Shown: positions 14,601 through 17,600, counted from the stretch's first letter. The stretch: DNA of 64,000 nucleotides from Escherichia coli (GCF_022846255.1 NZ_AP025682.1); one strand, 5' to 3'. Made by a program: the numbers.

Positions 14601-17600
14601 TGCAAGCGCCATCGCTTCGGCTCCGGCAGCAATATGTACACCCGCTAACAACTGGTGGATAATTTTTACGGTCGAACCCAGTCCCGGTTCTGCTCCGATG
14701 CGATAAACTTTTCCGGCAACGGCTTCCAGCACGGGTGCTAGTCGTTCAAAGGCAATATCGCTACCGGAGGCCATGACAGTCATTTCACCGTTAGCGGCTT
14801 TTACCGCACCACCAGAAACCGGCGCATCCAGCATTTCCAGACCGAATCCAGCCAGAGCGGTAGCAATTTCTTGCGCATCAGCACTGGCGATAGTGGAAGA
14901 AACCATTACTGCCGTACCGGGTTTCAGATGTTGTGCAACGCCTTTTTCACCAAACAGCACCTGTTTAACCTGGGTCGCATTGACCACCAGCACCAGCAGA
15001 GCGTCCAGTTTTTCGGCAAACGTCGCGGCGTTATCAGAAACTCCGCAAGCACCAGCCTCTTTCAACGTAGCGCAGGCATTGCTGTTCAGGTCTGCGCCCC
15101 AGGTAGAAAGACCTGCGCGGACACATGACAGTGCTGCTCCCATTCCCATTGACCCTAAGCCAACGATACCGACATGAAACTCCGATCCCGTTTTCATCTG
15201 CTCTCCTTGTTAATTTAAGTGATATTTTGTTTGATGTTGTGAATATAAGCGCGGAAAGATAACGATATGGTGAGCTGATTCACAAAAATTAACATTGTGT
15301 GTTATTTTATGTGAACTAAGCGTTAGTTGCGCCGCGCACGTTTCGCAGGCAAATAGCGTAGAATGTCAGCAGGACAAAGGAAGGAGCAAAAGTTGATACC
15401 CGTAGAGCGTCGCCAAATCATCCTTGAGATGGTAGCTGAAAAAGGCATTGTTAGTATTGCTGAACTAACGGACAGAATGAATGTGTCACATATGACCATT
15501 CGTCGGGATTTACAAAAACTGGAGCAGCAGGGAGCCGTTGTGCTGGTGTCCGGGGGCGTCCAGTCTCCGGGACGCGTGGCGCATGAACCTTCTCATCAGG
15601 TAAAAACTGCGCTGGCAATGACGCAAAAAGCGGCTATTGGCAAGCTGGCGGCAAGTCTTGTTCAGCCGGGACGTTGTATCTATCTGGATGCGGGAACGAC
15701 CACGTTAGCGATTGCACAGCATCTGACTCACATGGAGCCACTCACAGTGGTTACTAACGACTTCGTTATTGCGGACTACTTGCTCGACAACAGTAATTGC
15801 ACAATTATTCACACTGGCGGCGCAGTGTGTCGGGAAAACCGTTCCTGTGTTGGGGAAGCCGCTGCGACCATGCTGCGTAGCCTGATGATTGATCAGGCTT
15901 TTATTTCTGCATCGTCATGGAGTGTGCGGGGGATCTCTACGCCAGCAGAAGATAAAGTCACGGTGAAACGGGCGATTGCCAGTGCCAGCCGCCAGCGAGT
16001 TTTGGTCTGTGATGCGACGAAATATGGACAGGTGGCGACATGGCTGGCGTTACCATTAAGCGAGTTTGATCAGATCATTACTGACGATGGTCTGCCGGAG
16101 AGTGCCAGCCGCGCGCTGGCGAAGCTGGATCTCTCTTTGCTGGTAGCGAAAAATGAATAATGACCTGCAATAACGCCGGGTTACTCATGCTTCACAGAAG
16201 AAGCATGAGACTACTTTATTTTATAAAATGACAGCCGCCCGCTTTTCGGCGATCCGGTATCTATATAAATCTGGTTAGCGAACGTCTGAATGTTATCAAA
16301 CATCATATGACCAAATATAAAGAAGTCGGCGCCGTTTATTTTTTGTAATTCGCTATTAAGTGATTTCTGCACACGATCAACAGGCCAGAGTAATTCGCTC
16401 TCCGCTATTTCTTTGCCAAACTGATACTCCTTCCCCGGATAATCTGCATGTGCGATGACATATTTTATGGTGTCGTTAGTGATTTCAATAATATGTGGAA
16501 GGTGATGGAATTTCAGCAACAGATCTATTGCCTCTTGTTGCTCTGAATCATTTAAATCGAAAAACCAGTCACCACCGCTGGCAAGCCACATATTTCCATC
16601 GCCAGTTTCGAATGCATCAAGCGCCATCGCTTCGTGGTTGCCTTTGACGGAGATAAACCAGGGCTGGTTTAACAGGCGCAGCACGTTAAGACTCTCGGGC
16701 CCACGATCGATGTTATCGCCTACCGAAATAAGTAAGTCGGTTTCAGGACAAAAAGAGAGTTGATGTAAGCGGGATTGTAATAATTGATAGTCACCATGAA
16801 TATCACCAACGGCCCATATATGGCGATAGTGATGGGCATTGATTTTTTGGTAGCGTGTAGATGGCATGGTTTTACCCTGTAAAATAAGCTTTCCTATTAT
16901 ACAGGGTATTTTTATTTGATTCGTCAGTTGTCGTTAATATTCCCGATAGCAAAGGACTATCGGGAATTATTATTACACCAGACTCTTCAAGCGATAAATC
17001 CATTCCAGCGCCTGACGCGGAGTCAGTGAATCCGGGTCGAGGTTTTCCAGTGCCTCGACCGCAGGCGAAGTTTCTTCCGGTACGGACAGCAAAGACATTT
17101 GTGTACCATCCACTTGCGTAGCAGCGGCGTTCGGCGAAATGCTTTCCAGCTCACGCAGTTTTTGCCGTGCGCGCTTAATAACCTCTTTTGGCACACCCGC
17201 CAGAGCTGCAACCGCCAGGCCGTAGCTTTTGCTCGCTGCGCCATCCTGCACGCTATGCATAAAGGCAATGGTGTCGCCGTGCTCCAGTGCATCGAGATGC
17301 ACGTTGGCGACGCCTTCCATTTTCTCCGGTAACTGGGTCAGCTCGAAATAGTGGGTAGCAAACAGCGTCAACGCTTTGATCTTATTTGCCAGATTTTCCG
17401 CACATGCCCACGCCAGCGACAGACCATCGTAAGTAGACGTTCCACGCCCGATCTCATCCATCAACACCAGACTATATTCGGTGGCGTTATGTAAAATATT
17501 GGCGGTTTCGGTCATCTCCACCATAAAGGTTGAACGCCCGGAAGCCAGATCATCCGCGGCACCTACGCGGGTAAAGATACGGTCAATCGGGCCAATCTCG

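Follow-up and report, generated by a model that had tools for sequence, protein, structure and literature searches.

Two RNA hairpins between mutS and pphB of Escherichia coli and their probable place at the 3' end of the mutS message

Rho-terminated transcripts of Escherichia coli were found by Dar and Sorek (PMC6061677) to end sharply, right after stable stem-loops. Such stem-loops lack U-rich tails, and the RNA downstream of them uses cytosine over guanine; the authors attributed the ends to protection from 3'-5' exonucleases. Two other gene-end structures also invite comparison. Intrinsic terminators are Rho-independent and combine a stem-loop with a U-rich tract on the transcribed strand, and REP sequences closer than 16 nt to a stop codon reduce translation (Liang, Rudd and Deutscher 2015, as cited in PMC12306157). 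To which of these do the hairpins between mutS and pphB belong? The surrounding region has been discussed in PMC4209514 and PMC7232297, and the mutS-pphB spacer was not treated there.

We studied this spacer in a stretch of 64,000 nucleotides from E. coli (NZ_AP025682.1), which is called “the window” here. Both flanking genes are encoded on the minus strand, hereafter the gene strand; the mutS-proximal hairpin is termed HP1 and the pphB-proximal hairpin HP2. At a coverage of at least 80%, the spacer occurs in 5201 of the 5426 complete E. coli genomes, nearly all at 95–99% identity and once per genome, and is thus not unconserved noise. As best explained, the spacer supplies the mutS message with its 3' untranslated end and carries two RNA hairpins of different histories; we hold this explanation, taken as a whole, with moderate confidence.

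Table 1. Positions of the features in the window, counted from its first nucleotide.
Feature	Position	Strand	Remarks
pphB ORF	16211..16867	(-)	
C-over-G stretch	16700..16905	(-)	C 23–28%, G 10–18%, C/G 1.5–2.5
pphB start codon	16865..16867	(-)	
mutS-pphB spacer	16868..16972		105 bp
Equivalent of the K-12 mutS 3' end	16870..16874	(-)	four following A residues inseparable from a poly(A) tail
HP2	16873..16908	(-)	9-bp outer stem, 1-nt internal loops, 6-bp inner stem, AAAG loop
pphB Shine-Dalgarno-like AGGG	16875..16878	(-)	7 nt before the ATG, inside the HP2 3' arm
TATAAT hexamer, perfect	16896..16901	(-)	HP2 5' arm; possible weak pphB -10 box
Linker between HP1 and HP2	16909..16934	(-)	A-rich, unstructured; contains 4 of the 9 E. 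coli variable sites
HP1	16935..16972	(-)	11-bp core stem 16939–16949/16957–16967, 7-nt loop, AU-rich extension pairs
mutS ORF	16973..19534	(-)	
mutS stop codon TAA	16973..16975	(-)	HP1 stem starts 3–6 nt downstream

The gene strand of the whole spacer folds at -36.5 kcal/mol. This value is far below, not near, the background provided by 200 dinucleotide shuffles, which averaged -13.75 kcal/mol (z = -7.8) and none of which equaled it. The plus strand folds less well (-30.7 kcal/mol, z = -4.1). Taken alone on the minus strand, HP2 has an energy of -18.3 kcal/mol (z = -5.5) and HP1 one of -18.2 kcal/mol (z = -5.8). The first-pass annotation, made from the sequence alone, had reported two inverted repeats in the spacer, and both exist. 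That in HP2, ACCCTGTA/TACAGGGT, lies exactly where it was claimed (16874–16881/16900–16907), and its arms extend to 14 nt (16873–16886/16895–16908; 93% complementary, with a gap of 8 nt); that in HP1, TTCCCGATAG/CTATCGGGAA, had been placed one base too high and occupies 16940–16949/16957–16966. The T-rich plus-strand sequence said to lie 3' of both hairpins is likewise present, being ATTTTTATTT after HP2 (a tail also given as AUUUUUAUUU) and TATTATTACA after HP1. No 5' or 3' end in support of these T-runs, which that annotation had emphasized, was found in the published K-12 data sets examined. The suspicion that the hairpins are not simple mutS terminators was borne out. On the gene strand, the 3' flank of HP2 is UAAAACC and that of HP1 is AUAUUAACGA, neither of which is a U-tract, and a terminator scan called no minus-strand terminator in the spacer. 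HP1 and HP2 thus resemble intrinsic terminators in being gene-end stem-loops of similar size and energy, with a T-run on the plus strand after HP2, and differ from them in having no U-tract on the gene strand.

HP1 also bears a likeness to REP sequences: it is an extragenic palindrome of ~30–38 nt right after a stop codon, and its core, CCCGAT...ATCGGG, loosely resembles that of a REP. Unlike a REP, HP1 is single-copy in E. coli genomes and has no match to the REP consensus. Indeed, HP1 and HP2 each have a median of one place per genome among the E. coli genomes, even at the permissive threshold of E <= 10, and membership in the REP or another repeat family was therefore rejected for both. At the gathering threshold, no Rfam family matched in the spacer; the sub-threshold matches there were at chance level (mir-1991 at 22.9 bits, with a threshold of 66, and rli40 at 14, with a threshold of 100). 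HP1 and HP2 are undescribed examples of well-known gene-end structures, that is, ordinary punctuation rather than a new type of element.

The experimental data on the mutS transcript are from K-12 MG1655 (NC_000913.3) rather than from the window's strain; the two spacers differ at four positions, none of them in a core stem. In the SMRT-Cappable-seq data of PMC6131387, a transcript containing only b2733 (mutS) runs from a start at 2857024 to an end at 2859753 that bears the label “novelTTS”. At this position, 23 reads ended, 10 passed by at least 50 bp, and 4 ended within 50 bp. The median 3' extension was 375 bp, reaching inside pphB, and an operon variant that joins b2733 to b2734 (mutS-pphB) was also present. 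The same source contains no transcript end at HP1 and no start within the spacer. Base mapping places 2859753 at window position 16874, where the 3' arm of HP2 has its last paired U; this end at the foot of HP2 comes from one K-12 data set of modest depth, namely the 23 reads. Because a poly(A) tail is added to the RNA in SMRT-Cappable-seq, the position of the end among the four A residues that follow 2859753 is ambiguous. No 3' end within the spacer figures in the Term-seq list curated by Adams et al. (PMC7815308). The supplements of PMC4782308 and PMC12306157 contain no entries for the locus.

A second source bears on how the transcript is terminated. Adams et al. (PMC7815308) reported a Rho termination region on the same strand with its peak at 2859755 (Rho score 4.54, p = 2.7e-10); the score is calculated over 800-nt windows, making the peak position soft. 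Without bicyclomycin, the coverage was 71 upstream and 39 downstream; with bicyclomycin, it was 69 and 172, respectively. Termination in this K-12 region is therefore bicyclomycin-sensitive, not Rho-independent as at an intrinsic terminator, and the mapped end lies at the foot of a stem rather than in a U-run. The first-pass annotation had suggested that the hairpins might stabilize mRNA ends. This suggestion finds support for HP2, where the K-12 mutS 3' end falls at the last paired base and coincides with the Rho-dependent transition. The stable end of the K-12 mutS message is thus probably the foot of HP2, reached after Rho-dependent termination. As a separate observation on the row for 2859755, the downstream coverage of 172 with bicyclomycin is 2.5 times the upstream mutS coverage of 69. 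This excess is more than read-through from mutS can account for by itself and may point to a start, Rho-limited or drug-induced, close to the spacer or beyond it.

The order of events that we infer is as follows. RNA polymerase would pass both hairpins. In the read-through RNA, HP2 would mask the pphB ribosome-binding site: the AGGG has a predicted unpaired probability of ~0.00, that is, the site is predicted to be fully paired. The pphB start would consequently be poorly translated and open to Rho. Rho would then load on C-rich, G-poor RNA just downstream of HP2 and terminate inside pphB. The C-over-G stretch, about 200 nt in total, spans HP2 to the first ~170 nt of pphB, and its composition marks it as a putative rut-like loading region. 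From the terminated end, 3'-to-5' exonucleases would shorten the RNA as far as the HP2 stem base, leaving the stable end of the mutS mRNA, and a minority of the transcripts (about a third) would escape to yield the mutS-pphB co-transcript.

By analogy, then, HP2 would be the protective 3' stem-loop of a Rho-terminated transcript, a role that shares the moderate confidence of the explanation to which it belongs. The likeness to the stem-loops of Dar and Sorek is considerable: HP2 has a stable stem without a U-rich tail, a steady-state 3' end directly at the stem foot (in one K-12 data set), C-over-G usage downstream (Table 1), and read-through that is raised by bicyclomycin. It differs from them in that it includes the ribosome-binding site of the next gene, and so may add translational masking and polarity, and in that it is much weaker in E. 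albertii; its protection from PNPase and RNase II is likewise by analogy. On this account, mutS, whose dosage affects the mutation rate, gains a sequence-defined message end where PMC6131387 had only a “novel TTS” with no known terminator assigned, and pphB could be both co-transcribed with mutS and kept low. The locus would be a tidy case of a known mechanism, leaving the general understanding of such elements unchanged.

The history of HP1 can be followed across genera. A hairpin lies a few bases after the mutS stop codon in the window, K-12, ST131, E. albertii, and two E. coli layouts with a TPR gene (described below), and also in Citrobacter werkmanii, Citrobacter sp. FP75, and Superficieibacter electus; across Escherichia, Citrobacter, and Superficieibacter, the energies range from -17.6 to -27.5 kcal/mol. 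When the seven distinct versions, representing seven lineages, are aligned on their invariant CCC:GGG core, the flanking positions are paired in nearly all of them. At six stem positions, the versions use three kinds of base pair; the pair bordering the core, for instance, may be T-A, C-G, or G-C. Such compensatory changes argue for selection on the hairpin itself rather than on a protein-binding sequence. HP1 is the older of the two hairpins, belonging to the mutS unit and retained as a structure. More distant Enterobacterales have other arrangements, including, in some, a U-tailed hairpin after mutS. To the eye, the post-mutS hairpin of Citrobacter sp. FP75 is REP-like when compared with the REP consensus. 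The window's own version of HP1 has the loop TCCTTTG (16954), and its 38-nt segment (16935–16972) has no exact match among the complete E. coli genomes, the best being 97.4%. Over its last 250 residues, the window's MutS does not differ from that of E. albertii NBRC 107761, yet the spacer is E. coli-like.

What would HP1 do? Most likely, it would serve as a second barrier to exonucleases, and as the sole barrier in layouts without HP2. Compatible with this explanation is an alternative in which HP1 mainly tunes MutS synthesis, the stop-proximal hairpin stalling the terminating ribosome and lowering output. In every examined lineage that has HP1, the base of its stem follows the mutS stop by 3–9 nt, which is within the distance of less than 16 nt at which this mechanism is known for REPs (Liang, Rudd and Deutscher 2015, as cited in PMC12306157); the conservation of pairing through compensatory changes and the lack of a detectable K-12 transcript end at HP1 fit as well. 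HP1, however, is single-copy and not a REP. The papers examined gave no evidence of ribosome stalling, mRNA cleavage, tmRNA tagging, or reduced protein output for mutS, and proximity to the stop may just reflect a compact gene end, as a hairpin also lies 1 nt beyond the stop of pphB. We deem it unlikely that tuning is the main role of HP1. The hairpin after pphB lies between the convergent genes pphB and ygbI (16184–16209, 10 bp); it has an energy of -17.6 kcal/mol and no U-tract on the pphB strand, carries a T-rich tail on the ygbI strand, and resembles HP1 in being stop-proximal and U-less.

HP2 is younger than HP1. Within E. coli it varies little: of the 5204 complete genomes that have the segment, only 2 fall below 95% identity. 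Fifteen E. coli genomes yielded nine alleles of the 105-nt spacer with nine variable sites, none of which falls in the 48 core stem positions (p ~0.004 if sites are hit uniformly and phylogeny is ignored); the variable sites lie in the two loops, the linker, and the outermost extension pairs. Overall, the spacer has diverged about as much as the coding blocks on either side, and no less. In E. albertii, HP2 is weak on the gene strand (-7.9 kcal/mol, z = -1.9) and no better than shuffles on the plus strand (-7.1 kcal/mol, z = 0.26). Two changes in its 3' arm there are uncompensated, neither the 5' arm nor the upstream A-tract having changed, and it may therefore be that something other than the hairpin constrains the 5'-arm side. 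E. coli spacers intermediate towards that of E. albertii were sought and none was found, all being at most 81% identical.

Could HP2 instead act on the plus strand? It might there be an intrinsic terminator that halts antisense transcription from the ygbI/pphB side before it enters mutS. Read in this direction, HP2 runs into AUUUUUAUUU, a T-run that forms, with the adjoining arm, the part best conserved between E. coli and E. albertii. Antisense transcription through pphB does exist in K-12, where it is Rho-terminated near 2860217. However, the plus-strand fold of HP2 is weaker than that of the gene strand (-14.5 vs. -18.3 kcal/mol), the E. albertii hairpin is at shuffle level on the plus strand, two published K-12 data sets contain no minus-strand 3' end near 28597xx, and antisense RNA is already stopped by Rho within pphB. 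An antisense terminator is, in our estimate, quite improbable. The Rho-dependent region antisense to pphB lies at K-12 2860217 on the minus strand (Rho score 5.9, PMC7815308), corresponding to approximately 16410 on the window's plus strand; it implies that transcripts arriving from ygbI enter pphB in antisense and are terminated there by Rho. We also considered a short plus-strand RNA extending from a promoter-like site at 16871–16900 to HP1 and rejected it, as 2 promoter-like matches were found vs. 3.0 expected; the published K-12 lists contain no plus-strand ends for such an RNA.

Given the same low standing is the possibility that the HP2 region is mainly a promoter or leader of pphB, its palindromy being incidental or serving only the control of pphB translation. 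The perfect TATAAT in the HP2 5' arm speaks for it, as do the retention of this hexamer and the upstream A-tract in E. albertii and the fact that, with bicyclomycin, coverage of pphB exceeds that of the mutS 3' region, suggesting starts after mutS. Against these points, the -35 region matches at no more than 2 of 6 positions, a consensus scan made no promoter call on the minus strand, and SMRT-Cappable-seq has neither a start at 28597xx nor a pphB-only operon. An “extended -10” promoter was specifically rejected, in that the TG abuts TATAAT with no spacer base between them, the -35 is poor, and no start is listed. A further reading, to which we also assign little probability, unites the two hairpins into one regulatory module, with HP1 setting MutS output through ribosome stalling at the stop codon and HP2 gating pphB through occlusion of its ribosome-binding site and recruitment of Rho. 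Were this true, melting of HP2 or inhibition of Rho would replace the mutS-only message by one that spans mutS and pphB, and mismatch-repair capacity would thereby be tied to the PrpB phosphatase stress pathway.

The reading that we prefer, a protective HP2 beside an older HP1, can be set against the different layouts of the mutS-rpoS region. In an alternative layout, seen in the two E. coli genomes examined, a TPR/Sel1-repeat gene of ~285 aa lies between mutS and pphB (strains 100248 and LSC52, at L001 3078–3932 and L002 4125–4988); a corresponding gene follows mutS in Citrobacter werkmanii (L010 3367–4221). On the mutS side, the TPR layout is homologous to the window as far as HP1 and no further; on the pphB side, homology reaches to the start codon. 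In a further layout (E. coli TUM9757, L004 2288–3044), an IS1 element immediately adjoins HP1 and the locus lacks pphB; HP1 stays with mutS. Between the IS1 and rpoS, TUM9757 has only a truncated GntP-family transporter gene. For both layouts, the boundary of homology with the window is the mutS-side edge of the linker. The linker plus HP2 has homology in E. albertii only (z = 18); its score against the region upstream of the TPR gene is z of about 0. HP1 is kept across the layouts. Since homology with the alternative layouts ends just after HP1, only the Escherichia mutS-pphB layout has the linker and HP2. The first-pass annotation had raised the idea that the hairpins are remnants of a segment junction. 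The idea is apt insofar as the alternative-layout homology stops directly after HP1 and the linker plus HP2 is shared with E. albertii alone; it does not suit HP1, which is maintained by compensatory substitutions across several genera. That both hairpins are functionless leftovers of rearrangements in the region, although breakpoints flank the linker plus HP2 and the spacer is no less diverged than the coding blocks around it, is very improbable in view of the covariation of HP1 across genera, the avoidance of both core stems by E. coli substitutions, and a transcript end exactly at the HP2 foot.

Toward mutS, the polymorphic mutS-rpoS region has its boundary just past the conserved hairpin HP1. 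A more particular origin for the linker plus HP2, as an old TPR-gene promoter region left behind by a deletion, was rejected, the alignment scores against the TPR-upstream regions being at shuffle level (z of -0.5 to 1.5). The regions upstream of the TPR gene in the E. coli TPR layout and in Citrobacter werkmanii are clearly homologous to each other (z = 9), suggesting either that the TPR layout is the older one or that it was exchanged between genera. Elsewhere in the window, the Rfam scan detected a cluster of five tRNAs (58384–58973, plus strand) and the sRNA MicA (61754–61825, minus strand), which are unrelated to the hairpins.
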